DNA of 34,857 nt, taken from NCBI GenBank assembly GCA_964526865.1, contig CAZGMX010000007.1, forward strand, positions 1-34,857, written 5' to 3'. This DNA comes from an uncultured Actinomycetota bacterium (lineage in GTDB: Bacteria; Auribacterota; Ancaeobacteria; Ancaeobacterales; CAZGMX01). Under the pieces are notes generated by a model. It was not told the origin of the DNA and made no database searches. It worked only from the letters and a program-made list of their open reading frames with translations. The translations under genes and the position numbers were made by a program. The stretch's first letter is position 1. Every line of letters starts with the position of its first letter. Positions 1 to 34,857 of this stretch are shown piece by piece.

Positions 1-3000
1 GTTCTCAATTCCCCTGCGATATCCGAAAGTTCCCCGTCAATGGTCAAAAGTGAAGCCTTGGGCACTGTCAGGGCACTGTTTATAGCGGCGATCTGCGTTG
101 CGTCAGTGATCTGCCCCCTGATCGCCTCAGCTTTAACGATAGCCGTATTGAGCGCTTCACGAACCGGGCTCATCGCCGCCTGCATGGCATTCAAGTTCGC
201 CAAAACCGTCGCTTCGGTCACTCTGCCCTGCCCAAGCATCGCGCCCAACTGAGCGACCGTCTTGCCCTGCAGACCGTCTGTGAACGCCGCCAAATCGTGC
301 GCGGCATCCGCGGTATTCTTTAGGGCAGTGAATCCTGTCAGCGAATTGTTGTAGCCGCTGATCGCGGTTGTCACACCACCAGACGCCGGCGTAAGTATCC
401 GGCTGCCGAAACCACTGACAATGTCTCGTATGGCATTGCTTTCAAACGTACTGATCTCACTGGCGCTGTTTGTGACCGCCGTCGCGGCGCCGGATTTCGC
501 GCTCGCCAGCGCGGCAGCGTGTGTATTCATCTGGCCGATAGCCCCATCGGCATAGCTCCAGATACGCTGGGCCTGTGCAGGACGCGTGGTAGAATCAGGA
601 TAGACCGTTTCTATCGTCCGTTTCATCGCCGCAAGATCGGCTAGAATCGTGTTCGTCGCGGCAATGGACCCACTGGTGACACCGCCCACCGTCGTATCCA
701 ACAATGTTTTCTTTGACGCCAATTGCGCCTGCAGGGAGGTAGCGGTAATTGCGGCTGTCTTGACATCCGTTATCAGCTGCTCGAATGTCGCGGACGTCAC
801 GGCCGCGGCCGCAATATCTGCGGTTATTTTGGTCTTTACCGGATTCAACGTCGCGCTGATTTCCCCGCTGATTGAATGGCCATCTGCGTCTTTTTCCCAA
901 TTTGCCAGAACCGCCTGATCCGTCTGCAATCGCTCAGCCGCGGATGCCGCAACCGCCTGCGCATCACTGCCGGAAGTCAGAATGGGTATCTGGTTTAGCG
1001 GATCCTGGAGCGCATTGGCGATCGGCGTTAAATCCGGCGCCGCGGGAATTGCCGGCGGCGGCGGTACCTGCAGGTCAATGGTGGTAGCAGCCGGCTGTGT
1101 CGCGGTCCCCGTAACAGCAGGCGGCGTGATCCTCCCCAAATCGGCGCTCATGTTCCACGTCGCGTTGTAGTCATATGTCGCTGGAACCGAGCCTACCGCC
1201 TGCGTCAAATCTTCCGCGGTCATCGTTGTGCCGGTAGGCAATGTCGTTGTCAACGGCGGCACGGCACTGGTGCTATTCTGCGCAAAACACACTCCGCCAG
1301 GAACCAGTTGCATCTGTCTTGGAGGTGAGGCAATAAGATTTGTGCCGGTGATGGGCGGCGGTGGCGGCGGCGGGGTAGGAGCCAGCGGCCCATAAGACAC
1401 ATTATCCAATGACATGGATTTTTGCGTAACCGCATTTATTCCTGCAAATAAGTATGGATTGAATGTAACGTTGTCAAATGTCGCGGTCGCTGTTGCCGGC
1501 CGTGAAGTGCCCGTCTTATACATACAAAGCAAGACTTGATTGCCGGATGTTTGCCACTCCACCTTCCCCGTCCAGGGCGTTTGATAGTCCCAATCCAATC
1601 TTGCTGTTTTTGTGACAAGAGCCCCACCAATTACACTATCTATTACGAGACGTTGCAGACCATCGGGGGCTCGGTCTACTTTAACCATGATGTAATCATG
1701 ACTGATATTACCAGTGGGATATGTTTGGTTGCTACTCAAACCGAATTCCCATCCCCGCAAATCTTCTACATAAGCTTGGGTAAGCCCCCCAGATGAGGGC
1801 CATTTTGCATCCAGAGTCAAATCAAAGCTGATCGTTGGGTTGTCCGTTCGAAGTATCGCTGTTTTCTCCATCATTCGGGCGTATCCGCCTTGTTCTGCGG
1901 TCAGCACAGCCTGGCCACCACTGATCACCGCACTGGTAGGATTTCCTGCCGGAACAACTCCACCTTCCAACATGGTCCGCGAAAAGTTAAACGCCGAACT
2001 GGCGGAATTAGAAAAATTGTCCACGGTTGTTCCGCTTGTGGTACCACTCCCCGGAACAACAGGATCCGGCTCAATATTCTGGCCGGTGATTGTTCCATTG
2101 GTAAACGTGAACTCCGCCTTCTTGCCGTTTGTTTTCCATACGGTGATCACACCGTTATAAATATTGTTGATGTCCAGCGCCTGGCCCTGTAAGCCGTATT
2201 CAAGCCTGTTTGGGTCACCAGACACGCTCGCCGTATTAGTCCGATATTGACTGCCCTCTTTTACTTCGATATACGAGATATTGGCTGGCCAATCCGTCAA
2301 GACAGCGGGGTTGTTGTTGTAAAAATATTGTTTCGCGCCGTACGTCACAAGTGTCTTGGATGCGTCACTCGGATCCAGCGCTTTGCAGAAAGTGCCGCCG
2401 GGAACTGGATTGGGAATACCCGCAGGCGGCACAACCGCACCGGATGTCGACAATGCCTGATCCGGCAATGTCCCGATGGCCCGAATGACTTTGGGCGGTT
2501 CCGTCTTGCTCAATGTCATCGTCACCGTCTTCCCACCGAACGTAAGATCCAGGCTTGCCGGCTTGTTGTCCGCGGAATCATACCGCCACGTCCGCTCCAG
2601 CGGAATATATGCTGTTCCCGTCCAGTAGGTCGTTGTTTCCTTCAAGAGCGCTGGATTGGATGTCCCCGGGACAAACTCCACATGACGACTATAGGGACAA
2701 TTGGCATCCACAACAGTCGGACGTTCATCATATGAATCGACGGAAAGCGGACTGCCGCTATACATTTTTGTGGCGTGGTATCCATATCGGAGATTTGTCG
2801 AATCCACGACATCCACGTACTTGCCCGTGATGGTAATCCCATCCAAACCTAAAGTATTTTCCACAACATAGTTGTATCGATATGTATTTGCGCCAACAGT
2901 TCTGGAAACCTCGCCTTCCAGCCTCTGCTTTGATTTCACCCCATTGGTGTAGTCGATGGACTCTGTGCTCAAAACCGTCCATGTGTATGTGTTCGCATCT

Positions 3001-6000
3001 TCATTCGGATAAACATATCGGCCAATAAAGTTTAAAGTCGCAACCTCTGACACCGGTGTTGTTCCATCCGTCGCATAGACAGTATTCTTTACAACCCTTT
3101 GACTGCCCTTGCCCGGAATTTGCACCGGCACACCACCGAACGACACCCTTTCCAAGGACCCATCCCCCCGATACGCAAACTGCTTGGTCCCCGGCACAGG
3201 TTTGGTGACAACCGCCGACAACGGCTTTTGCCCCGCCGGGTCAAACGTCAGCGTCTCGGCAAACTCCACACCGTCCTTTTTGCCTTCAATGAGAGCCGTC
3301 GCGGGAACGTCCTGGCCGCCCACTAGGGCCGTTTTGTACGTAATGGTATTTTTCAAGAAGTTGCTGGCGGGATCGCCAAGGATAACTTCCCGCCGGCTGG
3401 GCTGGCCCTCCAACGGCGCAGGCGCAGAACTCCCGCTGCAGAGACCTGTCACTTCCATCTTTGAGCCCCCAAATATTTCTATCTCAACCCGGTACAGGCT
3501 GTATGTCGTCGAATCGCTAAATTGCGGGGTCGCAGGCCGTGGCTGTCCTGCCACATAGGCATAGACATTGTTTTTGCCTCCCGAATTATCCGCCTCAAAA
3601 ACATATTGCGCGCCCTGTGTCAACGTCGGGAGAGAGTGGGAACCGGTGATAGGCGCACCGTTCAGCGTCCACTGGCCGCTGATGTAATTGAGAGATGTTG
3701 AACCGAGGCGCAAAACAACCACCCCATCGGCAGGAAGCACTGTAAGACCGGCTTCAATTTTTGCGCTATTCGCGCCGCCGCGATAGATCATGCGGGACCC
3801 GGAATTCAAAATGACCCTTCCACTGCCAACCTGGCTGCCAGAAACACTCACCCACAATCTTTCATTATCGTTCACATATCCACCGTACCCGTCTTGCACC
3901 ATTCCATCGAGTGATTCGGCCCTATTCCACGTGAGTCTCTGACCCATTGCGTTTTGTATGGTCTCCTGCCGCACGCCGTACTGCGCGTCTTTGCTGAACC
4001 GCGTTTCGCCCAGAATCCCCCCGTTCACATCATATCGAACAAGGCTGATTTCCTTTCCTGCCGGCAGAGACGCCGCGGCAGTTCGCATCACGGCTTTTGC
4101 CGCTTCGATCGTCGCTGCATCCGCCCTGTTACTGCCATTATTCAAGGCATTGTTGATGGCCAAACGATCCGCCGCGCCCAACTCGCTGGGAATATTGACG
4201 TTGACCACATCAGTCGTCTGATCCACCGCCAGCCCGTTCGGCAGCAGTCTTTGTGCGACGGTTCGACCATTGAGCGTCGTCCCGGTCACCATACCGCTTT
4301 GATAGGTCATCCGAAGGGTATTTAGCCTATCGGCCGATGACTCGCTGACGGCGCCGTCCAAAATGCTAACCGTTCCATCCGAACTAACCCTGTAAGAGGT
4401 TCCTGCTTCGATCACCTGTATTCTTCCATCACGAAGAGATATCACTCGCTCAACGGCGAACGCACGGTCATAAGCGGTCGGATTGCCGTCACGATCGCGG
4501 GCTATCACATTGCTGATGACAGATCCCGGCTCATTGCCGCTTAAAAGATCCACACCCGTCGCGTTATCCACCATCGATGTCCTCTGCCCGGCGGCGTCAT
4601 ATGTCACGGCAATATCCCTATCCCTGCCCGGTTCCACGATCGTGATCGTCATCCCCTTGGGAGTGATTGCCGCCTGTCCGGCCGTCATTTCAAAATTCGT
4701 TGTGCTGGTGGTGAACGTGGTATCACCAACTTGACAGGTCTGGCCAGGCCCCGTTACGGTGAAGCTCTCCGGAATTCCCAGGGCATCGAAATCGGCCATG
4801 GAGCTGTAGGCCGCACCACTGGCCGTGAGCACGGCACTGGGAGTTCCATCCGCACCGAAAGAGTACTTGTCGATCGTGCCATTGGCCTTGAGTACGCAGT
4901 CCATCCTGGCGCCGGCCGCCAAGGGCTTGGTGAAGACGATTCCTTCCTCGCCCGGACTCACCGTGAAGACACCCGTATTCAAATTGGCCGTCCAGGCCGT
5001 TGAGTTATCAGCCTTGACGCCACGCAGAGTCCCTGCACTCGTATCCAACACAGCCGTAATTCCTGGGCTGGAATAGAGCGCCTCCACCACTTTTACCCCT
5101 TCCGTCTGGACACCCAACGTATCAAACCTCTGCACAATGGCGGAAATACCGCTGGCGGCAGAAAGGTCAATGTCGGCAACGATCTGACCGGCCGTCTGCA
5201 ATGCCGCGGCATAACCGCTCAACCGCTGGCTGATATCTGTGTTTGTCTGCTGCGCGGCCAATAATTTTGCGGCAAGCCCGCTCTGCTGTAGTAAATCCCC
5301 GCCCACAAAAGCGGTTGCCATGGTCACGCCGCCAAAAACAGCGGTCGTTGCAGTTCGTTCCACATTTGCGTTGTATTGGGTGATCGAATTCTGGAGGGTT
5401 TGGATCTTGGATTGAATATCTGCATGATGCGTCGCCAGTTCGGCGACGCCGGCCGTTTGCCGTGTCACGTCACTGGTCAAGGTGTCCTTGCCCGTACCCG
5501 GCGGAAGCCTTGGCATCAATGCCCCCAGGGCCGCGATTTTGTCAGTCATCCCCGAAATGTCACCATCCACCTGCGAGGCGACATTGTCGGCAGGATCCAG
5601 CAGACTGACGTTTAAGAGCGCAGCCGTGGCCGCTGTACCGATTTGAGCCGGCGTCTTACCCGCCATCGTCGTCTTCAGCGCATCCATGGTAACCATGCCG
5701 TTGGAGATTGCGCTTCCCACTCCCGTCACTGCCGACAAATCCGTGGTCTTTCTTGTGGATATGGCATTGGCAATCAGATCGTTTTGCGCCGAAATACTTG
5801 TGCCCGCACCTGTCAGCACGTTGTTAAGTGCCGTACCCAACTCCGTCTTTTTGCCGTCGTAGAGCACTGTCAGTTCGCCTTCTCTGGACGATCGCGCGCC
5901 TTCTAAGACCCTTAGATTTGCCGAGTTGGTACTTACGCTGTTACTCAGGGTCGATGCCAACGCGCCTCCGGACATTTTGGCAAGCATCTCCCGTCCTACG

Positions 6001-8648: not shown

Positions 8649-8678
8649 CGTCCCCGCCGCAATCTGCGCAGCGCTCTC
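8649..8678 (-). other. 30-nt spacer between the giant ORFs, in frame with both (10 sense codons E-S-A-A-Q-I-A-A-G-T following the TAG). Contains only a weak SD-like GGGGA (8651-8655), 2 nt from the ORF2 ATG.
   Basis: Minus-strand read: TAG GAG AGC GCT GCG CAG ATT GCG GCG GGG ACG ATG. The coordinates 34847 and 8648 both leave remainder 2 on division by 3. No hairpin or terminator is apparent. Confidence 0.9.
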
Positions 8679-29600: not shown

Positions 29601-32600
29601 CTGCTGCTGCGTCGTCACACCTTTAAGCTTTGTGCCTGTAGGTTGGAGAGCATTTTCAACTTGACTCAACCAATTTTTGAGCGCATCTGTCTTGCCCCCC
29701 GCATTGATGTTGGCGTAAAGCGTTACACGATTGTCCGTAACGTACCCTGCTCCACTTATTGGCTGGGATATATCTGTCCAGTCCCAATATTTCGCTCGCA
29801 GTTTTTTAGGCGTAACGCCCGCATCAAGAATATACTCATTGCGGCTGTATTTGGTCGTATCTGTCCGGTTGACATTTTCCGTCTTCCACACTTCACTGCC
29901 CACACTGCCGCTGGCAGTAAAATCCTGATTGGTATAAACGACGGTCTTTTCCACCCGGTTAAATGGCAGCGCCGCCCCTCCCCCTGTTATAAAACGATCA
30001 CTCACCCACACGGGTGTACCCGTACCCACCTCCGTCGCCTTCCATTCATTCGCCCCCGTCCGCTCCAGTGTAAAGCTCCTGTTGGGCGGTCCGCCGGGCA
30101 GGGTGGGCAATTCAATCTTTTCGCCGATTTCCAGCGGCGTCGCGGACGCCGGCAGTTTTTTAACCGCAGCGATGATTGAGTCAGCGTTGGTTAGATCAAC
30201 ACGTTTGGCAGGATCGGGATCACTAGCTAGCCTTTTCAGTTCCATCAAGCGGCTGTTCGCCTCTGTCTGCTTGCCGGCAGACCATGAATCTTTTAAGTTG
30301 AGCACAACGCTTTGGCCGTCCGCCCCCATGATACTTTCTTCATGGCTGAAAATGTCATATTTCTCTGGTGTCGTAGCCGTAGCACCTGTCACGGGCCCGC
30401 GTTCTTCGACAATACGAACAGCGGACTTATCCGGATTTGCTGGATCGTATCCCGTGTAATATTGAGTCAAGTAATCCGTCTGCACCTGAACATGGGTACT
30501 CCCTGCGATGGGGGTCGTGGTGTCTTTAGTGATTGCATAAGACACATTGGCTATACGTCCGATCTTGACGTTATCCACCAGTAAGGGAGCGGGACCGTAC
30601 ATTGAAAAAATAAAGTCTTGCTCCTGGTTCGTCCCATTGAAATCGCATATTTTATCGTCCGCAGCACCGGCAATCCCTTTTTTATACAACGAAAAACGCA
30701 ATTTGCCATCTTCATATAAAGCTTTTATTTTATAAGTGGAATTCTTATCTATCTCTTTTATGAACATCGCATTGTTACTTGCTTTGCGCGTATCCCACAG
30801 ATATGCCAAAGTTTTTCCGCTATACGGGCCCCCAAGGTCATCGGCAAAGGCCAGCTCATAACTACCAAAGCCCACTCCAGATCCGTATTCGCCACCAGCA
30901 AAATTGACATCCAATTCCAGTGTTGGTTTGCTTGCTATTTCGAGGGTGTTTCTTAACTCCAAGCCACCATAGCCGGTAATTTGCGCCTGTCCATTTTGCA
31001 GAGAAACGCCTGAATTCACTCTCCATATGTTTTCGTCAATAGCTTGGTTTTGAAAACTGTCGGCCATTACTTGCTGTTCGACACGCTGTGCCCTGTGATA
31101 CCTCTCCTCGACCACATTATTCGCCTTGTAATCAGTCCGTTTACACAGCATCTCGCCATCGGGTGTGCCCAATATGTAATCCTCCTTCCACTGTGGATTG
31201 CCATTGTCTGTGAACGTCCGATATTTCATCCACCCTTTCGTCTCCGTTGTGAGCGCTTCGGTTGCGGACACCTTCTGGACATCCTTGATAGAGGTGAGGT
31301 ACCCCATTTCAACATTGTCCAGCTTCAGGGGGGCACCACGGGTAAACATTGCGAGATTTGGATTAAAACCAATTCCGGCGACCGTTACCACTTGGGACGA
31401 CGGCGGTTTCTGTGTGCCCCTTTCATAGACATATAATTGCGCGGCACCTTGAACAATTTCGATCTCGGTAACATAGAATTTTGATGGATCGATGCGGGTT
31501 GAAATCAATTTGACAGCATTGCCTGACGAATCTGACAATAGCGACGGCGCCGCATCCGGCGGAACCATCTTTGCCATATAAAAAAAGTAATTGTTCGAAC
31601 TGGGGTCCTTGCAAGCATAAACTCCCAGCCGTTTCGATGCCACACCAGCATTTTCGTTCTTATTGTTGATCTCGATAAATGTTCCGGAGAGATTTTGCGT
31701 ATCCACCTGAAACTCAACTTTAAAGTACGGGTTCCTCGCCCCGTCGAGGGTATCGCGACCAACGATTTCTGCCCAGTAACCATCTGTTCTTGAAATGTGG
31801 GTTACCCCTTGTGTTATTTCCTGATCAGTTTGTCCAAAAGCAGTATCGGGTGTACCCGCAAAGAGCCGTGTCATATTTCGAAAATCTGAGAAATTTTCTG
31901 TCAGTTGTACCTGCTGCCCATCTCTTGTCACTGCGGGAATTGTTATTTCCTTTGTCTGTGCCACCGCGCCGTCGGATCCATATTGATACTGCTTGCGCGT
32001 GTTGCCGTCTTTCACCTCCGAATATTGTTTTCTGCCCAAGGCATCACAATAATCGGTGGTCACCTTCGTCCCTGCTGTTGTGGTTACCGTAATAAGTCCC
32101 GTCTGGGCATCTATGTGAGCAACCGAGCCCGGTCTCCAGGACGCGTCTGCTGTTGTGGCAGTGATATTTGTTATATCCTCTACCGGCCCGCCTTCTACAA
32201 ATGTCATTCCATTCTTTATTGCGCCGTTCTCATAAATGAACATCGTAACAGTTCCGCTGCCCCTCTTCATGACCGTGCCATTTATGATTTGCTCCGCACC
32301 GTCCACCATTCTTATGGTAGTTCCCCTCATGATGGTGAATCCTGATACCCCCATAACGCTGACAGTCGGTGTTGCGGCATCCACATCATAGACCACTGTG
32401 CCATCCAGCAACTGTTTTAGTTCGGCGAGAAGGTTTGCGGCTTTACCCACCGCTCTGGCTTGGCTTGCCACAACCGCACTGTTCACCGGCACTTCCGGGC
32501 TAATTGTGTCGGAAATAAACCGGCGGCTTATTTCGCCTGGAACATTCGTGCGGCACCTAGTCTTTTCCAGATACACATCCGGTGGGGGAGAAACATTTGC

Positions 32601-34847
32601 AAATATGGTCCGCGCCTGCTGTGCCGCTTGGGCTAATTGATCCGGAGTAGCAGTCCCTATTGCGATATTTTGCGACGCAAGATTATTCCTCACTGTTTCA
32701 AAATAGCTGCTAATAAGATCTTTCATTCCGGTTTCTTTTGCTTCCACAACCAGCGTGCTCTGGGTCCAGTCACCGGTTGCGCCTGTGAGCATCATCATAT
32801 GTCCTTTACTCGGGTTATCACGATTTGGCCATTCCCCCAAAACAACAGTATAGGAATCGGCCCCAAAACCATAACCAACATCTTGCCTCTTGAAATACGT
32901 ATTTTCCTGATCATACCCATATTGATATTCATCTGTTGTTACAAAACCGCTTGCCCCCCCCCGTTGATATGTGAGAGTGTTCAATTTTCCCGGAGCCACC
33001 GTAACGTCTGAACTTGCAAAGGTATCGCCGCGGTTCAAATATTCGTTCCTATATTGATATTCACGCTGATTGCCGCCCAAATCTTTGGAGAGTATTGTTT
33101 TTTTTTCTTTTACGGCCTGAGTTGCGTCGTGTATCTCTTCCTGCGTCTCTGACTCCACTACCATCACATCGCCATCGCTCCCGGTACTGGTGTATCCTGC
33201 ATAATCCTTCCGGACGGAAAAATAATTCTTGCTTCCCTTTAAAGAATCCGGAACAGTTATCGTAGCACCCCATGCACCGCTTATAGCCTCATCCGCAAGA
33301 TTCCTCGCTGAATTTCGAAGAGTTATGCCTGTAATACAATAGGTAATAAAACCGGCTTTGGGCCAGCTATAGCTCTTTTCTATGACAATTTCTTCACCGC
33401 TATTCAGTGCAGGCAGTACAGCGTCGATAGCGCTGTCAAGCGCCTCGTAACTGCCTACACTTTGAAAACTATCCCGGATAGCATTAAACCGCGCGGGAAG
33501 ACCTGTACCGAAATTTACGGGAGTTCCATCTGGATTCACGCCGGCGAATTCTGCTGTAATTATTGACTCGCCTTGAGCATAATATGTCTGTTGTATCTTT
33601 CCATTATCCTGAACTTCACGAACGGTTCCTTCCAAGATATTCAAGTAGTCTCCTTGCCTAATAAATGTGCATCCGTTAAGATAAGTGACGTCCCCCTCCG
33701 TCAGGTCCCCACTATTCAATATATAGCTCCCATCCTGCCGGGGTCCCGTCACCGTACCCGTCCCCGCCCCCAAAATCTCTTTGGCGCTTTCGGCGGCCAG
33801 GACCACCGGCTTGCCCGGTTCTGCGGTCAGAGCCGCTTCTGGCTTTACGGCCAGGGGCGCTTCACCGGCCTCGGCAATCGCGGGCGTTTCCGGCAGAGGC
33901 GCTTCTCCGGCAAGCGCGGGAACCTCTGGCAGAGCTAGTTCTTTGGCAATCGCGGGCTCTTCCGGTTGGACAACCGTGCCCGGAGGGAGCTGTTCGTCCG
34001 TCAAGATGACACCCGTTCCATTGCCTGCGGCCCACATGGCCTGAAATTCCATGATCCCGCGATCCTCGGCTTTTTCCCCGTCCGTCACTTTGACAAACTG
34101 GCTGCCATCGTCCCTGGTCATCACCTGCGCCATCACGTAGTGGTTGCCGCCAACGTGCGCGATAAAGGGTTCTTTCATCGCAGTCAAATCTGAAAAATCC
34201 ATTTGGACAACCTTCATGTCAAGGCCGGCACTTTTGGCCATGTTGGCAATTGTCCAGGCGGACGTCTGCAGCGCGCCCTGTTGCGGTTGCTCTCCCACTT
34301 CCAGCTTTAGGACACCGCCCAGGATGTCGGACAGGATGGTCTCGCCGACAAAACTCTCAAAGTCCTCGGCAAGCGCCCCTGTCTCTTCCCGCGTTCTGCC
34401 CGCCAGCATACGGCTCAATAAGGCCGCCTGCTGTGGAATTCCCTGATCCAGCGCCTGCTCGGGAGTCTGCATCACTCCCTGAATTCCGACCTCACCTTCC
34501 CCTTCCAGCACCGGCAGAATTCCCTGGTCCGGCTCCCCTCGGCGCGCCAGGGGCTGTGTCGCGGGCATTCCCTCGACAAACGCCTGCTCGGCCGTCTGCG
34601 CGGCGCCCGGCATAATCGCTTGCGCCCCCTCGGGCAGCAACAGCTCTTCCGGCGCCCCGGCCGGCAGGACAGGTTCTCCGGCCGCCGCCGCGCTCACCGG
34701 CTCCTCGGGCTTGAGCGTGCCGGCCTTGTAGGCCAGCAACGCGCCCAGAGAAAATACGGCGCAGTTGATCAGGGCCGTCCCCTGGCTGGTCAAGAAGGCC
34801 GCCATGTTTTCAACTGCCTTTTTGGCCTCCGCCGCATCGTTGATCAT
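8679..34847 (-). CDS. Giant modular protein, 8,722 aa. N-terminal C39-like cysteine peptidase domain, ConA/LamG-like and CBM-like beta-sandwich domains, many internally repeated alpha/beta modules. Probably a secreted or cell-surface adhesin-like protein. The 5' end may extend beyond the window.
   Basis: The ORF track shows one uninterrupted minus-strand ORF ending in TAG at 8679-8681. Every overlapping plus-strand ORF is short and R/P/C/H-rich, typical of antisense shadow frames. The three codons upstream of the ATG (K-Q-T, 34848-34856) are also open to the window edge. No Shine-Dalgarno is visible in the 10 nt available, so the start codon is uncertain. Confidence 0.9.
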   Translation of the reverse strand: MINDAAEAKKAVENMAAFLTSQGTALINCAVFSLGALLAYKAGTLKPEEPVSAAAAGEPVLPAGAPEELLLPEGAQAIMPGAAQTAEQAFVEGMPATQPLARRGEPDQGILPVLEGEGEVGIQGVMQTPEQALDQGIPQQAALLSRMLAGRTREETGALAEDFESFVGETILSDILGGVLKLEVGEQPQQGALQTSAWTIANMAKSAGLDMKVVQMDFSDLTAMKEPFIAHVGGNHYVMAQVMTRDDGSQFVKVTDGEKAEDRGIMEFQAMWAAGNGTGVILTDEQLPPGTVVQPEEPAIAKELALPEVPALAGEAPLPETPAIAEAGEAPLAVKPEAALTAEPGKPVVLAAESAKEILGAGTGTVTGPRQDGSYILNSGDLTEGDVTYLNGCTFIRQGDYLNILEGTVREVQDNGKIQQTYYAQGESIITAEFAGVNPDGTPVNFGTGLPARFNAIRDSFQSVGSYEALDSAIDAVLPALNSGEEIVIEKSYSWPKAGFITYCITGITLRNSARNLADEAISGAWGATITVPDSLKGSKNYFSVRKDYAGYTSTGSDGDVMVVESETQEEIHDATQAVKEKKTILSKDLGGNQREYQYRNEYLNRGDTFASSDVTVAPGKLNTLTYQRGGASGFVTTDEYQYGYDQENTYFKRQDVGYGFGADSYTVVLGEWPNRDNPSKGHMMMLTGATGDWTQSTLVVEAKETGMKDLISSYFETVRNNLASQNIAIGTATPDQLAQAAQQARTIFANVSPPPDVYLEKTRCRTNVPGEISRRFISDTISPEVPVNSAVVASQARAVGKAANLLAELKQLLDGTVVYDVDAATPTVSVMGVSGFTIMRGTTIRMVDGAEQIINGTVMKRGSGTVTMFIYENGAIKNGMTFVEGGPVEDITNITATTADASWRPGSVAHIDAQTGLITVTTTAGTKVTTDYCDALGRKQYSEVKDGNTRKQYQYGSDGAVAQTKEITIPAVTRDGQQVQLTENFSDFRNMTRLFAGTPDTAFGQTDQEITQGVTHISRTDGYWAEIVGRDTLDGARNPYFKVEFQVDTQNLSGTFIEINNKNENAGVASKRLGVYACKDPSSNNYFFYMAKMVPPDAAPSLLSDSSGNAVKLISTRIDPSKFYVTEIEIVQGAAQLYVYERGTQKPPSSQVVTVAGIGFNPNLAMFTRGAPLKLDNVEMGYLTSIKDVQKVSATEALTTETKGWMKYRTFTDNGNPQWKEDYILGTPDGEMLCKRTDYKANNVVEERYHRAQRVEQQVMADSFQNQAIDENIWRVNSGVSLQNGQAQITGYGGLELRNTLEIASKPTLELDVNFAGGEYGSGVGFGSYELAFADDLGGPYSGKTLAYLWDTRKASNNAMFIKEIDKNSTYKIKALYEDGKLRFSLYKKGIAGAADDKICDFNGTNQEQDFIFSMYGPAPLLVDNVKIGRIANVSYAITKDTTTPIAGSTHVQVQTDYLTQYYTGYDPANPDKSAVRIVEERGPVTGATATTPEKYDIFSHEESIMGADGQSVVLNLKDSWSAGKQTEANSRLMELKRLASDPDPAKRVDLTNADSIIAAVKKLPASATPLEIGEKIELPTLPGGPPNRSFTLERTGANEWKATEVGTGTPVWVSDRFITGGGAALPFNRVEKTVVYTNQDFTASGSVGSEVWKTENVNRTDTTKYSRNEYILDAGVTPKKLRAKYWDWTDISQPISGAGYVTDNRVTLYANINAGGKTDALKNWLSQVENALQPTGTKLKGVTTQQQFITAAESILPGLAMGEVLEIGGGPVFSRVREDLGFPVNNPGVREYIKIGKTVSGTGRETTWKNAGGTVVKTRSEYVVGDGYKFMIDSFPQDGSSVITSYKQNDPTTVTKIETNMPAGGKWIRKEEYPLAQVFGGTDPFKSSKAYNTRETVAIYPNSSRTQLEAKIDLMQAQTVPQTEGRLTSREGATPLAVWVEIAQAGKQEELRSFFNQIKTDVPNFAAATEAAVVSAVQARLNSLPAGTNVYIPIWDAQSSSWAKKYIFADRTEVRQNLPNGKYKTTESKIVSNVLRTTETICSSEPATEADKNRLKEKTTVTQFYSAGKEETITYHQASAVPAGRSATLKEESFVYDSSATPKKLRKTETYVTGTPDGAGYYEKQKYYSAYDALGVTPTQEYGVVVTKSLVSGSVGNVSICLNGPTNLSTAETCVTNALTRLKPLSGADLEAAISNIVTTLTPTSTMYRNTGPGNNRTIYYPSGKKEEEFYIAGTTNYEKKVTTVGNVQTTDFYTTGAVTTTEIREVYPPPNSSKVKAKTTLDIAGNQSVVENWDIGGTRLRKIEQIPATSPDMTFTAIQYVNRSANWLDDGATQKVAFQDQTLDYSVDFGSDSPNVQIQVSAKNWGAPLNSSYTNYQVEVFVDGVSKGTMNIPASASQYQTNTPFSLGQMTGTMPKTVQLKWKNDGGDGSTWDANIQIKDIVFQRTPQAAGRTIRDTNYQTGLTTEKEMDSTGTKIVSEKKITGFGNTQKTEIIEYDAAQNPRRTIQINNNTSGGSERIITDSVSKTRVTETFSQPNATGTITSTDVMKFKVTPTAGTGTNYNTYPNYPNAGWEDDVIRWVVQGNMLDVITTIDGAFALRETLLYESNIADVNNPTAGGRCIQSIYEYADGRKITTTYQWVGNAPRLLEEVTEDRYTDATLFAGAGRSVMTKTTDQLVVIYTDSTGKEVRRTWSEHDPAVSTEWVKVPKKTIQNSSMMNSTSEYVNGLEAKRSDTYRVVPEDSTAPQAYKNHMNTMRTRFGQNYQNWFSLKSGAPTDIASIREDRTYATPGNTSTATIDKYVMTYKDGHTEERAVMGGGWMTVIRKSDGTVMKTISETYNGTTTVENLPSGEVLQTVQDYATATTTTTRTREGKKLSERICQGYADTLGYKVTETYYRPDGTTIVKTMASEVVQDASLVPGMTYPQLYSTNCTKQVVSEGGAQTTTYLTLGANPTVIGTVVQRGNKFISSGGSRTSWNPYPYSAETEMDGDQIKRTVLNTEYFTDPTGTCADPTKWVWNYKTTEQYDYEGGAPVRYKCTYSLDNTTNSYSYDIVGGDWISTGGSEVFPLPEGTVLPVTANTPMPISQEKVNGLDGATVKEPATLTRKNGDLVMVTGVVEVPLTAPEIGTRAQTYLNGTLQSEKKTTTATDAAGNSVPDVTETFMRAYAPNWTATGPVGDGNTIVSQSIGSDSKLAMTGRSTYVGLTFDKPLKTTDLPEISFDIKASTNPGTSQNDCFILDNGLAALSTGYRRLGISVDGGKIKIQRMEDNQYLTATGTRGTNSSYCVYQVTPAAEGSPSNVFYSVNVRYEKNATTGKIDAKVFVWQRDQQQPTNPVYTWSSISDDVKAAEFIPRFTSRNLLATAAPMLVENVKIKGEPTLALSEEVAAGREVKTVGVTTSDNYSVTETTMKTVTIAGKPVAQCQSDVVTGKEGGVAFKEMGLYNSAGTDRVLTLRGASAKVTDTAWNTLKTAIGDPARTDLENVLKTVVTTLKIPVGTKGQVVQGDFVYKFEQKTLPGGGLPGTGNWEVGQMVEDPNDASKKIYVPKTKTEYTASQRVFHEYGFEMPPAQKTLTDNSDPDNVRVSVLQERMRAYPLAGGAAACDIWKWKLPSGEILEDSRSVTSPSGPVTISPATGKYAVYTEAVYDATMGSDSASFGRIDPRNIQIFTPDPALKTILENSGTFGALCIANGITSPSGWNVHKAPDAGKAAAFVAKLTDVQGHLQSMDVADLPNFAAQIAELQRDYSAIMTQIETAWGIKYAQDQASRDAVAAAFGFNNETKAVGADINATAYDIRHIKSGDKHILTAAIEGTSYIATRVYDAEYNLIKTDITQKVSGVNNREIKTFLPGDSVHPAITIKGAESEFGDVGRFFDSMQRQLESRRSDDLAYPESPDPGEMTRWARRQILDNYVPDNVDFTIDYGGIVNKFKVTNGVATQETTGLMESGTPFREMTETGTYQPIRMNGTAGLKERARRFEGQTGSETVIFDEWKWRCNGSVVDYDSTPGTTDNRTVGASFDFVDRNSATGVSAGYPKVWDSQGTEITNSVFVFTSQADTSQVTGFGSDSATQGRFDAADLQIKQFSMKSVMDSSEISGQVAASFGLAANTEAEALMLLQGSSSDITDCVEAFNSVQRELGRIQAIAQPKPDNIKYTANVLRDNVEINSRKAGITDAQALAAVKQIVGIEKVKTAFEFDSAELDPAVAANARDFDLGLNTDGSITAALKDAGGNQIGQATFAYIQGTGQNAGAIQRKDFVLKAGGSPAGAVIEDEIGYTYLGARNIVSTSHYVGGKTPNLGVGVIDPNLAWTRDVTDEQDNNSKTPIKIVTIDRSVNPGGTPPGAVTKFITKYAVDNTQSPAVLTLQEKELRRQVTDAAGNAVKFAEKYAPPVTASGGPSKASPDQGTIIPSPATGYPTLVDAAGTPITDGFLYLANDAMLSETDRAANVAADDPSRLFYDPEKIGAYVTGNHDLLVSTGVEANILADKGVTDPFDMTMRQITDVLAALRTADAAIDGIASVWQTGSDIAALKGAIDSIKTQYNLPDSAIQSILQDRIGTSAVVGYANNMLTISQGGAPAMRMEVLTGNYVQKNPSNASEWLISVGGTSYNMSTLATDLENNKSTFDNKLQEAQTFLALPEGNNPPSPTNNVLAWNITATIDNDLYFAGTLLPITTFTSTADWDRLDSYYDLNGLSESLDVADGKITNAESVKSAFQTEKTKYDAIKSATTATGAGTLNELVTADLGNLDSKVPASGALILNPAQNAVETSLSSAIAGLTNYAQQQYAARIVPAKENIYQQNINLAVTSLGQPSAGAIESSGLKQAIIDDFEMNATQVNMGNDSTFPHPIAKIDALKLVLARAQVVLGGVNAATPNSTVAAVAQLDAELDLALGTAADYDTSEMKNCTTGTIAKLMEAQVAGLTSTTDLITAAGNILAVGGNALAALSQARTQALSEFKSSSNRETYVAALRSIAALYDQAGNAASAVSVRNDVFTLEANRALTLMLAVYRSAMPTAMLEGLKAQGDLSSNTALDSKIDQYRAALTAINGALNNAYSNLITDGRAFAQLCLTMKDHNVPEAQVKEYVRSIVNAAWFVPSGVAAEWNGDSTVLQTRETAAPNRVTASYNLINGKTTTCIIYDGSTSNINTMTITDPIARTSTVENRVNKSKTIVSTNSAAPMTIKEYYNNVDQSTGISTGLSGLDISFKSEGTVAAGGTYVQTCTSYMTDTGTGAIVPEIELITGENNGQQYQRLMKNNVNYFEVAWPMLTQRRQAMLDARASFTSPTLFVDSDAGALNAESLSALEGHESRYVTAARDTVAAAVGAIDANNPWNSAQAVQMFGYINHMMDKTISSERLSLNTYLAATKNAYARSYGEEDTVSYSGLVNDYDTAQEAIRTQHAAIAGKILEKFNAGQTAAYSSLSTENAAAVQGSGLKDAISTLFVGRTVVPSDQWTTGDLLPQGALSYYTAAVYDPVNGTVRPSGTLPPDRDISASPYFKPSQCVAALERIAGATNSAMSSATLLDFKTIGTAIEAVRSAIGNEYRTQLVSPIETAQSQAMDASVAAAFAQRLTQGTVAPTINLANGTIEFTSATGNIIRGNITDGSYSMFQSNGTTKICDAANTYDGTGKNTVREFSYPVTLAGGATATVTDRWELDTGTNTLVPAAGYPRAVAADGSTNLPIVASSRTTDNLIDVANLDVSPISWGTLGTPAAPNADGIIAAVAQMQAAGITTVAHILSAALTNDDYTAVYNTPKRLLTILAESSGAPFKLEIGTGNFAKKTGADWVVRVNGTERNLSTVAGDIRRENGDFTAVCNDTEAYLGVPATGTAPAANTAAKAIKDAVDQGLVAAGNIASPMTEAAWTNLKSGYATALTAVQNAITDPVSGKRAAFDQARSELVTAIGEFTAVNDGASADLKALISTKLSEIQGTASVPLAYPQNREETLTGYVYDQQDRFIAGMAAVYNQEAVYVLDNVHYPGLNTRLDNAMAAMAASGLKDALLADIKTPSGAVDMGGVVRAANGIYNLFDGQHAAPAAGGTAPYGAIAAFRNTVNNAGYQISLMSNDPSGGASRLAFIDTSVLKPAYGAVHGTGAVYENSTLHAKVAGALIVELNRISAESNIAGVSVGAAKSILALGGDAQAVLDKGIPRAAQADILASYSVSDLASLASQPASKITQVFETMSSVVNAVSQWGSYASPDVERIYAFMRDNASPNFYKLSDTAVKSLMEAKFASTNTGESAVYNTDKKTLTLSNDLGIFYRLDVSRGEYVKRSGNDWIFGYRGNPNNVGVSDRNLTRLVSNLSLGKDSLVRAYSDAVNYMAVPAEGTAPAAGSALNLVADAVAGDLGVTVTQPVTAAGWDSLEANFKSALAAVQTALGDGSGSKVVALGTGYSTFYWPNRDCAYIKTAASQGAGSLGELITGKLDEINQILSDTNIPTIPTWDTGTATDKAKIMLAGRPEALTTAVYSQQNNLIAKKKEVLLAEIDRVAVGLGSDRAQVINQSGLKMEYLRACGYDPNAADNILNMGDRDRSASLFPPPNTVGSANPTPQTAVAGYSTGLGRINSALNGITATDSASVITARGNIKTLMLSVLNFSLNGGWDRREVRYTTDQIAARYETSTLKQSVDASVAGVIAQQAAAMTSAADRIAAAKSIMAIQGNPQAVVDMLAPKAVQDGVLAHFGIASLADLAGSPADTIDQVLTAMSDIGAVIGGVGTRAEPNADGIITFVNSLQNLPAEAIKQILEAHFKGPGVGDTAVYDTTKKMLTISTDPIGAVFRLEVASGKYSKWVGGKWTTFENLGGGSIRETVVESNVTTMQVKTNGVLQSRTVIDNVAKTETTEYFEDDGETVASRVEKTETVGQGGTPILTANIFYRNSSDNMEQVIGLSGSPAVVNQMTWAQVEALCVRIAGKNGSVLTDELETILKASSWTTGLTAQIAREDTIYRLEKGTEYGEMGRCVVLKKNAEGNFVKTRDMIITNYSGQTRKLLYDYLVGEPPVQMVVGEATMVRRFRNIPSDTTNGWYAETFEWVMPNGITVRLNIPTARRDTNGILQNPSDEESAIEHGLIAYSSDYKSRIIIYTGVEGKINDTILDDNSFGVYDPSKMVFVDYKIGGDITTTNMKWRIVKEMASAYESRSISRGEFHMIPPEKATDFNRDLENVQNALGGLSASTQRALAEETYGGGVVFDRSKKMLMTGDKEVRWEVDHYVTTKFTAKFMVNADSGAYASLDQATGKWKAVVNGAECVVNDAAAAQQLLEATGAVPAIGTRTAPNADGIITFVNSLQNLPAEAIKQILEAHFKGPGVGDTAVYDTTKKMLTISTDPIGVTFRLELGTGNFVKRDGTDWAARVGGKEMNLSTLKSDLVNNKYGFNNAYQEAQNYITGRLDPASSFPVSRQIWMRSLAELISTPEGEGDDYVTDMKPSAEALLSNLKTDFAQRMGVSPENISAENIFVRHSSLNPDYIGRFIPGLQAQPDEDGWIDGFNVTILYAGKKYSYLTAGTAELGFMPAETRRLSAAEQMDYAVSRPLDNVNTFEAIVPMEARFDGVAGEIRAQIAGDVTATQNMMGALTDNIADYRSVKGLSQDLLGAVDSAVMTALDTAVPATADPVYELMETAEAELKLETGDLATYALGRKDKFTQKRAELYKAEIDSIVSSLGGSRAWEMESSGTTQTLMNNFGLSAADVDLGGKKLSADCFDVFTPAGPTTAAAALLSRAQAVENFGKVIQAIDGAKNIPSTILSSTLKAIAAKLADPDFDAGAVVLDEKIIRWGARIAAVDTAIKVWNDARDDGRVVGSLYNVLLAQKLSTDEAKNIVETVTSYNGMRPALDMDKGTLEYYGTTKDGVELLAEKMDVINGTDTHFYYYPSTTTLPSYPLRETSANDPIAGTYTITDYDTDGETVTERSISRSSDPDYGGVYTYTTEDWVKKTKEIFGTDTDGVSFAVREFYIGVDQAVGLTGRDLAWVTEGQPWVEDGKDWKYKFVTYQADPDTGESVADIELVYGMVNGSHVEMLNKDGVDYFNEPMKLRTERRQAMLEGAKLLVPGSYVDPNAGDLATENLAALETHRADYLSNARLQAAGVLAGVHAKDPWLYDRKNMHAEKLFAYTNALIDKSNLYGRTDFVDVLDAEVKYGYLRSFTELPEFAAPLNQADKDTGRITFAAAYESVQKKIQSEYDAVTAVVKDKYDAGVKTAWGTDIATPTMATNAVVNSGLTAMLGTLFAPDNSLPAIETVPVVTAPPSMTMAKYKGGEVIPGQELVPGPAAKEEVERQVLKPSQSLNILQRIAPAAIQSLEKANLTDPRTIAQGINEVSLKIYQEFLNTVNVPSRQTKPTGVTDLNTLQALISTYPGYDAGVPVKVAAAFAEVLKQAKNMPVINLVAGTIEMTDPVTGNVTRGKLSDGSYSVFQPGGTTKIFDVVNTYDGATGANIGRSFTYPVTLADSTAVRVEDVWDINSSNGAVTPRTGYPKAYNVQTSNEMPITVAGDLRDPQTNLLNMANISLYTPATLPEGQSLTINVDTVVAENVNGYSGVTLKAGAVVTRENGLLKVVNGHLLQNSAVENGNKQNDTEFRSRQEISMLETTTYTTGPGAGKVQGYFQQFADTGHNLVRAELNTNVSNSAQDIVALREFARDAQAASNPTSAAGMEEFLNSHLELLGKFPLIEKFHPGELNFFAAQYTKDGNNIAINYQDISHSLGSVRTIDGVRRVLDANGVSAAVE
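9330..11010 (-). repeat. Paralogous block B (~560 aa) of the same duplication.
   Basis: See block A. The order of all sub-motifs is conserved, and the blocks lie about 8.4 kb apart. Confidence 0.8.
12862..13026 (-). repeat. Copy A of a perfect 165-bp direct repeat inside ORF1 (codes ...PNADGIITFVNSLQNLPAEAIKQILEAHFKGPGVGDTAVYDTTKKMLTISTDPIG).
   Basis: Base-by-base comparison with 14521..14685 gives 165/165 identical (ccgatcgggtcggtggagatcgtcagc...cccatctgcattgggc). The flanks drop to partial similarity within about 20 nt on each side. Confidence 0.9.
14521..14685 (-). repeat. Copy B of the perfect 165-bp direct repeat, offset 1,659 bp (553 codons, in frame) from copy A.
   Basis: Same comparison as for copy A. 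The shared antisense peptides in track ORFs 12724..12945 / 14323..14604 and 12942..13430 / 14031..15056 reflect the same identity. Confidence 0.9.
17740..19310 (-). repeat. Paralogous block A (~520 aa) of an old intragenic segmental duplication.
   Basis: Colinear protein similarity with block B. Matching pairs: MTIKEYYNNVDQSTGI.../FAVREFYIGVDQAVGL...; ...LTQRRQAMLDARA/...RTERRQAMLEGAK; ...FKPSQCVAALERIA/...LKPSQSLNILQRIA; ...NLANGTIEFTSATGNIIRGNITDGSYSMFQSNGTTKICDAANTYDG.../...NLVAGTIEMTDPVTGNVTRGKLSDGSYSVFQPGGTTKIFDVVNTYDG.... DNA similarity is only partial in the stretch compared (18021.. vs 9624..). Confidence 0.8.
24705..25340 (-). other. ConA/LamG-like jelly-roll domain 3.
   Basis: APNWTATGPVGDGNTIVSQSIGSDSKLAMTGRSTYVGLTFDKPL...EISFDIKAS...GKIKIQRMEDNQY...FYSVNVRYEKNATTGKIDAKVFVWQRD...LLATAAPMLVENVKIKGE. 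Same organisation and same terminal strand as domains 1 and 2. Confidence 0.45.
27503..27866 (-). other. CBM6/CBM35-like (galactose-binding-like) beta-sandwich domain, ~121 aa.
   Basis: ANWLDDGATQKVAFQDQTLDYSVDFGSDSPNVQIQVSAKNWGAPLNSSYTNYQVEVFVDGVSKGTMNIPASASQYQTNTPFSLGQMTGTMPKTVQLKWKNDGGDGSTWDANIQIKDIVFQR. The pattern (x-V-x-V-D-G-x-x-x-G-x-x-x-I-P..., ...V-x-L-x-W-x-N-D..., terminal I-x-F) resembles carbohydrate-binding modules. Assignment is by eye only. Confidence 0.4.
30552..31055 (-). other. ConA/LamG-like jelly-roll domain 2 (aa ~1265-1432).
   Basis: IWRVNSGVSLQNGQAQITGYGGLELRNTLEIASKPTLELDVNF...TYKIKALYEDGKLRFSLYKKG...DFIFSMYGPAPLLVDNVKIGRI. The opening W-x-x-x-x-G-x-x-L-x-N-G-x-x-x-I and the closing DNV strand are typical of LamG/DUF1080-like lectin folds. 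Confidence 0.55.
31299..31790 (-). other. ConA/LamG-like jelly-roll domain 1 (aa ~1020-1183).
   Basis: Alternating beta-strand pattern ...YFKVEFQVDTQNLSGTFIEINN...KFYVTEIEIVQGAAQLYVYERG...FNPNLAMFTRGAPLKLDNVEMGY. The terminal strand resembles the hydrophobic-D-(N/E)-(V/I)-x-(I/V) last strand of LamG/DUF1080-type domains. Assignment is by eye only. Confidence 0.45.
32954..32962 (-). repeat. G9 homopolymer on the coding strand (C9 on plus), codons Q-R-G-G-A (aa ~628-632 of ORF1).
   Basis: Plus strand ttg ccccccccc gttg. Minus strand CAA CGG GGG GGG GCA. Confidence 0.95.
33098..33106 (-). repeat. A9 homopolymer on the coding strand (T9 on plus), codons K-E-K-K-T (aa ~580-584 of ORF1).
   Basis: Plus strand attg ttttttttt c. 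Minus strand GTA AAA GAA AAA AAA ACA. Confidence 0.95.
33813..33965 (-). repeat. Imperfectly repetitive P/E/A-rich linker following the peptidase domain (aa ~295-345).
   Basis: Peptide PEEPAIAKELALPEVPALAGEAPLPETPAIAEAGEAPLAVKPEAALTAEPGKP, with GEAPL x2 and PAIA x2. At the DNA level, ggcgcttc(a/t)ccgg recurs at 33856 and 33898, and ggcaatcgcggg recurs at 33872 and 33945. Confidence 0.7.
33993..34805 (-). other. C39-like (bacteriocin-processing type, papain-fold) cysteine peptidase domain, aa ~15-285 of ORF1, interrupted by a large insertion.
   Basis: Motifs match the C39 family pattern. SQGTALINCAVFSLGALLAYKAG corresponds to Q-x6-C followed by a helix (Cys29 codon at 34761-34763). GALQTSAWTIANMAKSAGLDMKVVQMDFSDLTAMKEPFIAHVGGNHYVMAQV corresponds to ...P-x-I-x-H....H-f-v-V (His236 codon at 34140-34142). 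FVKVTDG supplies Asp256, and IMEFQAMWAAGNGTGVIL matches the eF...W....G.vl tail. Confidence 0.7.
34278..34715 (-). other. Low-complexity P/E/G/A/Q-rich insertion (aa ~45-190) between the catalytic Cys helix and the His-bearing half of the C39-like domain.
   Basis: The Cys29-to-His236 spacing is 207 aa, against roughly 70-80 aa in canonical C39 domains. The insert has internal similarity (AIMPGAAQTAEQAFVEGMPATQP vs GVMQTPEQALDQGIPQQ). Confidence 0.6.
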
Positions 34848-34857
34848 CGTCTGCTTG

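Follow-up and report, generated by a model that had tools for sequence, protein, structure and literature searches.

The window analysed here, which is the whole 34,857-nt stretch of contig CAZGMX010000007.1 (assembly GCA_964526865.1), is filled by a giant-gene locus on the minus strand, whose product appears to be headed by a C39-type cysteine peptidase domain. Six-frame translation indicated that the minus-strand frame with offset 1 contains a single TAG (8679-8681) among 11,618 codons. The remaining five frames contained 369, 510, 157, 485, and 568 stops, respectively, with no open run longer than 385 codons. Because the base composition predicts about 530 stops in 11,618 codons, an open frame by chance was excluded. 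The TAG divides the frame into two open reading frames (ORFs), ORF A and ORF B, which comprise 8,722 and 2,882 amino acids (aa) when counted from their first ATGs (34845-34847 and 8646-8648, respectively). Neither end of the locus lies inside the window. A first-pass annotation, made from the letters of the DNA, had described one minus-strand frame open from edge to edge with this TAG, ORF sizes of 8,722 aa and at least 2,882 aa, and a giant locus that spans the entire window with both ends beyond it, all of which were reproduced. No marker gene was found within the window, and Rfam and tRNA searches of the window gave no RNA genes. ORFs on the plus strand (150-341 aa) had no Pfam match and were set aside as shadow ORFs. 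The positions of the features are listed in Table 1.

Table 1 Features of the giant-gene locus and their positions in the window.
Feature	Position	Strand	Residues and remarks
ORF A	8682-34856	minus	8,725 open codons; N-terminus cut by the right window edge; ends at the TAG
ORF B	3-8678	minus	2,892 open codons in the frame of ORF A; C-terminus cut by the left window edge
C39-type (papain-fold) cysteine peptidase domain	33987-34856	minus	aa 1-290; Pfam PF03412
Candidate oxyanion residue Gln25	upstream of Cys32	minus	assigned by eye
Candidate catalytic Cys32	34761-34763	minus	within 'LINCAVFSLGALLAY' / 'LINCAVFSLGALLAYKAG'; assigned by eye
Pro/Glu/Ala/Gly/Gln-rich insertion, ~150 aa	34272-34721	minus	aa 46-195; separates the Cys helix from the His strand
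Double-glycine-leader-like motif	34314-34349	minus	aa 170-181; 'FVGETILSDILGG' followed by 'VLK'; inside the C39 insertion
Longer span of the same motif	34314-34364	minus	aa 165-181; 'EDFESFVGETILSDILGG' followed by 'VLK'
Candidate catalytic His239	34140-34142	minus	'GGNHYVMAQV' / 'PFIAHVGGNHYVMAQV'; inside the profile-aligned stretch, 'NHYVMA' motif
Candidate catalytic Asp259	34080-34082	minus	'VKVTDGE', 20 residues after His239; assigned by eye
Unique beta-rich region, ~4,180 aa	21447-33986	minus	aa 291-4470
U1 repeat unit	19506-21446	minus	aa 4471-5117
V1 repeat unit	17871-19505	minus	aa 5118-5662; 37% identical to V2
U2 repeat unit	16410-17870	minus	aa 5663-6149
U3 repeat unit	14847-16409	minus	aa 6150-6670
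U4 repeat unit	13182-14846	minus	aa 6671-7225
U5 repeat unit	11208-13181	minus	aa 7226-7883
V2 repeat unit	9447-11207	minus	aa 7884-8470
Direct DNA repeat, 228 nt	12815-13042 and 14474-14701		92% identical; conserved core of U5 and U4
Weak sixth U-core-like segment	4935-5282	minus	ORF B, aa 9859-9974; 'GISAIVQRFDTLGV...VVEALYSSPGITAVLDTSAGTL'

The window is genuine protein-coding sequence under selection. G occupies 38% of the first codon positions, and the GC contents at codon positions 1, 2, and 3 (GC1/GC2/GC3) were 0.54/0.47/0.59, a strong asymmetry in a window of 53% GC. The codon usage of ORF A was closely correlated with that of ORF B (r = 0.93), and both tetranucleotide and codon usage were homogeneous along the window. 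The internal repeat pairs, which are described below, showed amino-acid identities of 35-57%. In four of the five repeat pairs tested, which retain 35-43% of their residues, identity was 0.34-0.48 at third codon positions versus 0.52-0.65 at positions 1 and 2. Since the third positions have diverged more than the other two, these four pairs indicate purifying selection on the protein. The exception was the pair of U4 and U5 cores, with 0.67 at third positions versus 0.70-0.73 at positions 1 and 2, as expected of a recent conversion tract. Indeed, unlike every other repeat pair, these two cores use identical codons in 66 of their 76 identical residues, which suggests recent gene conversion or duplication between adjacent modules.

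At the DNA level, repeats were nearly absent, being limited to the 228-nt pair in these cores and one 53-nt tandem; thus, neither a tandem array nor an evident collapse of repeats accounts for the ORF. The alternative of a collapsed repeat, which had been named beforehand, was not borne out in a window that is almost repeat-free. It is very improbable that the ORF is an artefact, that is, a chimeric or misassembled contig or a frame that is open yet unexpressed. The total absence of homologues (see below) is unusual and, together with a fall of GC3 within aa 501-1500, would be in line with such an origin. However, open frames of 26 kb and 8.7 kb would not persist without selection, and the divergence of the repeats is of the type left by purifying selection. 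The homogeneous codon and tetranucleotide usage, the scarcity of DNA repeats, a bona fide Pfam domain (Peptidase_C39), and a confidently folding repeat core also argue against it. As to composition itself, GC3 was 0.47-0.49 at aa 501-1500 (approximately 30350-33350), compared with 0.55-0.66 elsewhere and 0.64 in the first 500 codons, and tetranucleotide usage was broadly alike across this segment. The dip may be the outcome of recombination or may reflect a local compositional difference.

Pfam was scanned with aa 1-3500 and aa 3501-11618 at E ≤ 1 and with all tiles at E ≤ 0.01. The sole family above threshold in all of the 11,618 codons was Peptidase_C39 (PF03412), which scored 28.8, 30.0, and 32.8 bits against a gathering cut-off of 22 (E of 1e-6 to 7e-8). 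This result agrees with the N-terminal C39-like papain-fold peptidase proposed in the first-pass annotation. The alignment covers aa 198-249 (34110-34265) and corresponds to profile positions 45-98 of 133. The hidden Markov model (HMM) stops short of the Cys region, whether the insertion is spliced out or not. In C39 peptidases, this region follows the pattern Q-x(5-7)-C-[GA]-x-[AF]-x-L...Y-x-G, and Cys32 in 'SQGTALINCAVFSLGALLAYKAG' together with Gln25 is compatible with it. Gln25, Cys32, His239, and Asp259 are listed as a plausible candidate catalytic set. In C39 peptidases, the catalytic Asp is expected about 16-20 residues past the His, which agrees with the distance of 20 residues to Asp259.

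C39 peptidases cleave after Gly-Gly in amphipathic leaders. Positions -4, -7, and -12 of the double-glycine-leader-like motif, which lies in the loop that interrupts the C39 domain, are hydrophobic, and the motif could be a cis-substrate or a pseudo-substrate of the putative peptidase. The strict form of the motif occurs four times in the locus (aa 170, 1764, 9620, and 11067) versus 1.2 ± 1.1 times in residue shuffles, a weak enrichment. Neither ABC_membrane nor ABC_tran was matched in the window. The NCBIfam models of peptidase-containing ATP-binding cassette transporters (PCATs) reached 12-15 bits against a cut-off of 853, on the same ~50 C39 residues only.

The unique region that follows the C39 domain (aa 291-4470) gave no family match, internal repeat, short periodicity, or transmembrane (TM) helix. 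It is succeeded by seven repeat units in the order U1-V1-U2-U3-U4-U5-V2, which are ~490-660 aa long, 25-70% identical, and confined to aa 4471-8470. About 250 residues separate V2 from the TAG. ORF B is unique sequence apart from one U-core-like segment (hmmsearch independent E-value, i-E, 0.004; hhalign E 0.033), and its assignment as a sixth U core is suggestive only. In total, ~7,600 residues are unique, and short-period repetition is absent from them. The first-pass annotation had spoken of thousands of residues of repeated modules. This description holds for the block of five U and two V units at aa 4471-8470 and is overstated for the ~7,600 unique residues, whereas its further statements that Ala-rich helical stretches are present and that most of the sequence cannot be assigned to families were both confirmed. 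No detectable relationship between the U and V profiles was obtained with hhalign. The only stretch it aligned (E 0.24) carries an 'SGLK' motif in a helical context, at aa ~6505-6515 in U and ~5440-5455 in V, and this match is probably due to chance. A motif of ~60 residues is common to aa 3074-3137 (25448-25637) and aa 8513-8572 (9141-9320) with an E of 2e-4. It is the sole link between the N-terminal region and the repeat block, and its second copy is located in the tail after V2.

The predicted product is acidic (D+E 10.0-11.4% versus K+R 7.1-8.7%) and poor in Cys (44 of 11,617 residues, 0.4%). No TM helix was found in the 11.6k residues (maximum Kyte-Doolittle value of 1.6), nor was any recognisable catalytic domain other than the C39 peptidase.

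The structure of U3 was predicted with AF2. When the five internal copies were supplied as the alignment for U3, the first ~135 residues were modelled as a confident alpha/beta domain with a predicted local distance difference test (pLDDT) score of 76-88. The predicted topology of this U core consists of helices followed by a meander of five to six strands, and the remainder of U3 was helical with low confidence. A Foldseek search of the U3 model against PDB and BFVD gave no significant match (best E 0.4-0.7). With confidence, the model predicts that the U core is one new domain of ~135 aa that has no Foldseek counterpart.

The lectin-like modules expected from the first-pass annotation fared less well. 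For its LamG-like jelly rolls, no Laminin_G or concanavalin-like family (e.g. PF13385 and PF02210) was matched, even at E ≤ 1. For its CBM-like module (a carbohydrate-binding module), the only signal was CBM60 at aa ~2365-2450 with an E of 0.084 and 13.8 bits against a cut-off of 28.2. This signal overlaps an equally weak Cadherin-like match, and both are sub-threshold. The single-sequence AF2 model of aa 701-1900 had a mean pLDDT of 33, which was too poor for a test of the jelly-roll fold, and Foldseek with this model gave nothing significant (best E 0.28, prob ≤ 0.25). A few of these insignificant matches were lectin-type beta-sandwiches, which may be taken as a hint and no more.

We searched for relatives of the locus. 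A full HMMER search with aa 5118-6317 against 1.84 billion cluster representatives gave no match at E ≤ 1e-3. Three queries (aa 1-1500, the C39 domain minus its insertion, and aa 10119-11618) yielded no homologue in word-indexed searches of a collection of 5.8 billion clusters, and an exact look-up showed that the 8,722-aa ORF is absent from a collection of 15 billion proteins. Pattern scans with aa 1-1000 likewise turned up no relative in GTDB species genomes, IMG/VR, or JGI metagenome contigs. The same was true of a scan with the V-unit alignment (including IMG/VR) and of scans with two further 1,000-aa segments in IMG/VR. The alignment of the U units diverged too far to yield a search pattern. 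No relative was confirmed by tblastn in the GTDB scan (one genome per species), and an exact 49-mer was not found in GTDB genome contigs or IMG/VR. The PDB sequence search gave no match; matches to designed armadillo proteins were rejected as sums of many 3-9-bit matches to a repetitive target, with individual i-E of 6 to several hundred. NCBIfam yielded noise plus the same C39 stretch only. The lack of homologues for the four tested segments (~4,300 of 11,617 residues) points either to a lineage that has not been sampled or to a class of proteins that evolves extremely fast.

Giant size and orphan status are common in mobile-element cargo, which raises the reading that the window derives from a mobile element such as a huge phage or a plasmid. 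Its product would then be a protein of the virion or tail fibre, or one that is injected, and the C39 domain would serve as a maturation protease or lysin. The Ala-rich helices resemble tape-measure-like segments, and the top BFVD matches were tape-measure or virion proteins, with a prob below 0.1. Nevertheless, PHROGs matched none of the tiles, and nothing was obtained when 25 kb were compared with phages and plasmids by megablast, or by tblastn with 5,892 aa against 50,697 phage records and with 6,000 aa against 72,556 plasmids. The IMG/VR scans gave nothing and PADLOC returned noise only. Taken together, these results make a mobile-element origin improbable; in particular, the product is not recognisable as a phage structural, tape-measure, or tail-fibre protein, as no PHROG or phage-genome similarity was found.

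We also examined whether the locus is one gene or two. The TAG lies within GGAGTAGGAGAG and is flanked by Ala-rich sequence on both sides ('...GVSAAVE' before the stop and 'ESAAQIAAG...' after it). The stop overlaps a strong Shine-Dalgarno-like sequence, AGGAG, which precedes the first ATG of ORF B by 19 nt. Because this spacing is too long, the AGGAG is not suited to normal initiation at that ATG, which is located 30 nt (10 codons) past the TAG and is preceded only by GGGGACG. An in-frame ATT is present 12 nt past the AGGAG. Around the TAG, neither a terminator nor a promoter was detected, no readthrough-type RNA structure was found after it (z = -0.83), and no repeat unit could be aligned across it. 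Codon reassignment or an alternative genetic code was rejected because the frame has one TAG in 11.6k codons and no in-frame TGA or TAA.

We lean slightly towards a genuine boundary between two cistrons at the TAG, where ORF B would be started by re-initiation at its first ATG. In this arrangement the TAG is an ordinary stop that is followed by an ATG 10 codons on. That ORF B is a continuation of ORF A has a chance just short of even. Somewhat more tentative is the proposal of a single uninterrupted gene that exceeds 11,617 codons. The TAG would then stem from an error in base calling or assembly, from a nonsense mutation specific to the strain, or from a leaky stop with some frequency of readthrough; this proposal concerns gene structure, not function. 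A single gene would account for the frame shared by ORFs A and B with no further stop, which has a probability of ~0.2 if the genes are independent, and for an AGGAG that has no start codon at a working distance. ORF B lacks a signal-peptide-like or distinctive N-terminus, and the Ala-rich helix-like sequence carries on into it from ORF A. The similar codon usage, the weak U-core-like segment within ORF B, and the junction devoid of terminator and promoter signals point in the same direction. On the other side, the TAG is a normal stop, which a single substitution class yields, and the lack of an alignable repeat unit across it and of a readthrough-type structure past it, together with the exclusion of TAG reassignment, argue against a single gene. 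Tandem giant genes are, moreover, documented elsewhere (PMC12863079). For the interpretation below, ORFs A and B are treated as one co-expressed locus.

Based on these results, the window may represent the first ~35 kb of a prokaryotic, or prokaryotic mobile-element, giant-gene locus that has no relatives in the collections searched. A C39-type clan-CA cysteine peptidase domain would open the product, at the window edge or very close to it, and would carry a disordered acidic loop of ~150 residues as an insertion. This head would be followed by ~4,200 residues of unique beta-rich modules, by the U-V-U-U-U-U-V block with units of 490-660 aa, and, past the TAG, by at least 2,882 residues in the same style. 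We propose, with about an even chance of being right, that the locus encodes an exported, acidic, Cys-poor structural or adhesive scaffold with a C39 processing peptidase at its head. The N-terminal C39 domain would cleave after Gly-Gly motifs, with the giant or its partner proteins as substrates, either as export proceeds or once it is complete. The acidic, TM-free composition with 0.4% Cys fits an extracellular location, as for the surface fibre or adhesin suggested in the first-pass annotation, whose putative carbohydrate binding gained no support.

Several points weigh against this proposal. Only 52 C39 residues are aligned by the HMM and the putative catalytic Cys was chosen by eye, and phmmer against PDB recovered no C39 chain. 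Export and localisation are deduced from composition alone, and the N-terminus with any signal peptide lies outside the window. Pfam, motif, and periodicity scans found no tandem Ig-like, cadherin, or RTX array of the kind present in typical adhesins. Furthermore, unlike the Omnitrophota giants considered below, the locus has neither a TM helix nor a SecA-like domain within its 11.6k residues.

A more far-reaching joint reading, to which we give little credence, would place the locus in a lineage or mobile element for whose tested segments ~15 billion public proteins hold no detectable relative. In this reading, the U units, the V units, and most of the 4,200-aa region would be new folds. The C39 head would be a self-regulated maturation protease that holds a double-glycine pseudo-substrate in its own loop and cuts the giant precursor at GG sites, and the TAG would be a programmed leaky stop that gives isoforms of ~8.7k aa and more than 11.6k aa.

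Few components of microbial genomes are as poorly understood as giant genes, notably with regard to how proteins of more than 10,000 residues are made, exported, and processed and what they do. The proposed C39-headed scaffold locus adds a case with clean, non-repetitive sequence, a plausibly active C39 head, and a candidate internal Gly-Gly motif, and its seven old internal repeats yield one confidently predicted new domain. Its interest lies mainly in its orphan status, in the testable idea of C39/GG self-processing, and in the in-frame TAG. The idea of self-processing by an N-terminal C39 domain, put forward for Omnitrophota, could be tested directly here with a construct of ~300 residues.

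Among known systems, the C39 domains of bacteriocin exporters and PCATs (ComA, LagD, and PCAT1) share with the locus the PF03412 match and a His motif of the form 'P-x-I-x-H...N-H-[FY]-V-[VM]'. They also resemble it in the candidate Gln, Cys, His, and Asp residues and in the presence of a double-glycine-leader-like motif in the same protein. In contrast to PCATs, the domain of the locus is joined to neither a transmembrane nor an ATPase domain of the ABC type, its Cys is parted from its His by a disordered insertion of ~150 aa, and it heads a giant non-transporter. Because the ABC domains are absent, the locus is not a PCAT transporter. Tox-PL-C39 and the 'releasing' papain-like peptidases of polymorphic toxins provide another parallel, namely a C39-like domain in a very large secreted multi-domain protein with proposed autoprocessing (PMC3482391). 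Tox-PL-C39 is classed as a toxin domain, the Tox-PL1 and OTU toxin modules are usually C-terminal (Zhang et al. 2012, PMC3482391), and the associated repeats listed are RHS (PMC3482391). The domain of the locus differs in being N-terminal, and RHS, filamentous haemagglutinin repeats, and toxin/immunity modules were not detected.

A classical repeat adhesin (RTX/LapA/SiiE, Ebh/FIVAR, cadherin/Big, or LPXTG) was rejected because no repeat family was matched and short-period repetition was absent. GGxGxD motifs were not present at all, and the single LPGTG is internal (aa 3527), the C-terminus of the locus being outside the window. Accordingly, the profile searches gave no support to membership of a characterised adhesin family, which had been raised in the first-pass annotation as the ordinary alternative. 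Apilactobacillus kunkeei is a low-GC Firmicute. Its Giant1-5 are encoded by consecutive giant surface-protein genes (PMC12863079). These resemble the locus in their back-to-back order, in encoding extracellular proteins of 3,000-8,000 aa with few known domains, and in recombination or conversion between modules, and differ from it in that Giant1-4 start with an N-terminal beta-solenoid domain rather than C39 (PMC12863079). The locus, for its part, has 53% GC, a C39 head, and no beta-solenoid periodicity.

The closest parallel in architecture was found in Omnitrophota, where C39 domains are proposed to cleave giant proteins into smaller polypeptides (West-Roberts et al. 2023, bioRxiv 10.1101/2023.11.21.568195). 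Of the Pfam-architecture clusters formed by 779 long Omnitrophota proteins, the largest is a PF03412 group. In that set, 137 of 916 long proteins have no hits at all, and sequence singletons make up 80% of proteins of at least 10,000 aa (10 kAA); the internal repeats are so old that they can no longer be recognised as tandems in the DNA (bioRxiv 10.64898/2026.06.07.730766). The locus is likewise on the >10 kAA scale, with an N-terminal C39 as its sole recognisable domain and a long Pfam-dark N-terminal stretch, and it is a sequence singleton whose internal repeats are old, diverged, and free of DNA-level tandems. On the other hand, Omnitrophota giants usually have many TM helices and SecA-like domains (10.1101/2023.11.21.568195; 10.64898/2026.06.07.730766), with ~22 TM helices per protein of at least 10 kAA, or ~2% of residues (bioRxiv 10.64898/2026.06.07.730766). 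The locus has no dockerin or enzyme domains in 11.6k residues, and it carries an in-frame TAG. No sequence similarity of the locus to anything was detected among GTDB representatives or 1.84 billion protein representatives. The resemblance to these giants is at the level of architecture only.

This comparison raises the question of whether the window is the domain-poor N-terminal tenth to third of an Omnitrophota-type giant of 30-150 kAA ('Archaeovorin' or multi-enzyme class). In such a giant, TM helices and SecA-like and enzyme domains would follow past the left edge, and the role would be predation or cell-wall degradation, not passive adhesion. Omnitrophota giants do have long N-terminal regions with no identifiable domain except C39 near the N-terminus, the locus extends past both window edges, and its GC content and codon style are not incompatible. 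However, no relative emerged from the scans of GTDB species genomes, which should include Omnitrophota, or from the full HMMER search against 1.84 billion representatives. In addition, 11.6k residues with no TM helix contrast with ~22 helices per Omnitrophota protein of at least 10 kAA, and the frame is interrupted by the TAG at codon 8,726. We consider this larger giant unlikely. Irrespective of the role of the putative scaffold, the locus is a homologue-free case of the C39-headed, Pfam-dark giant proteins already described in Omnitrophota, not a new kind of system.

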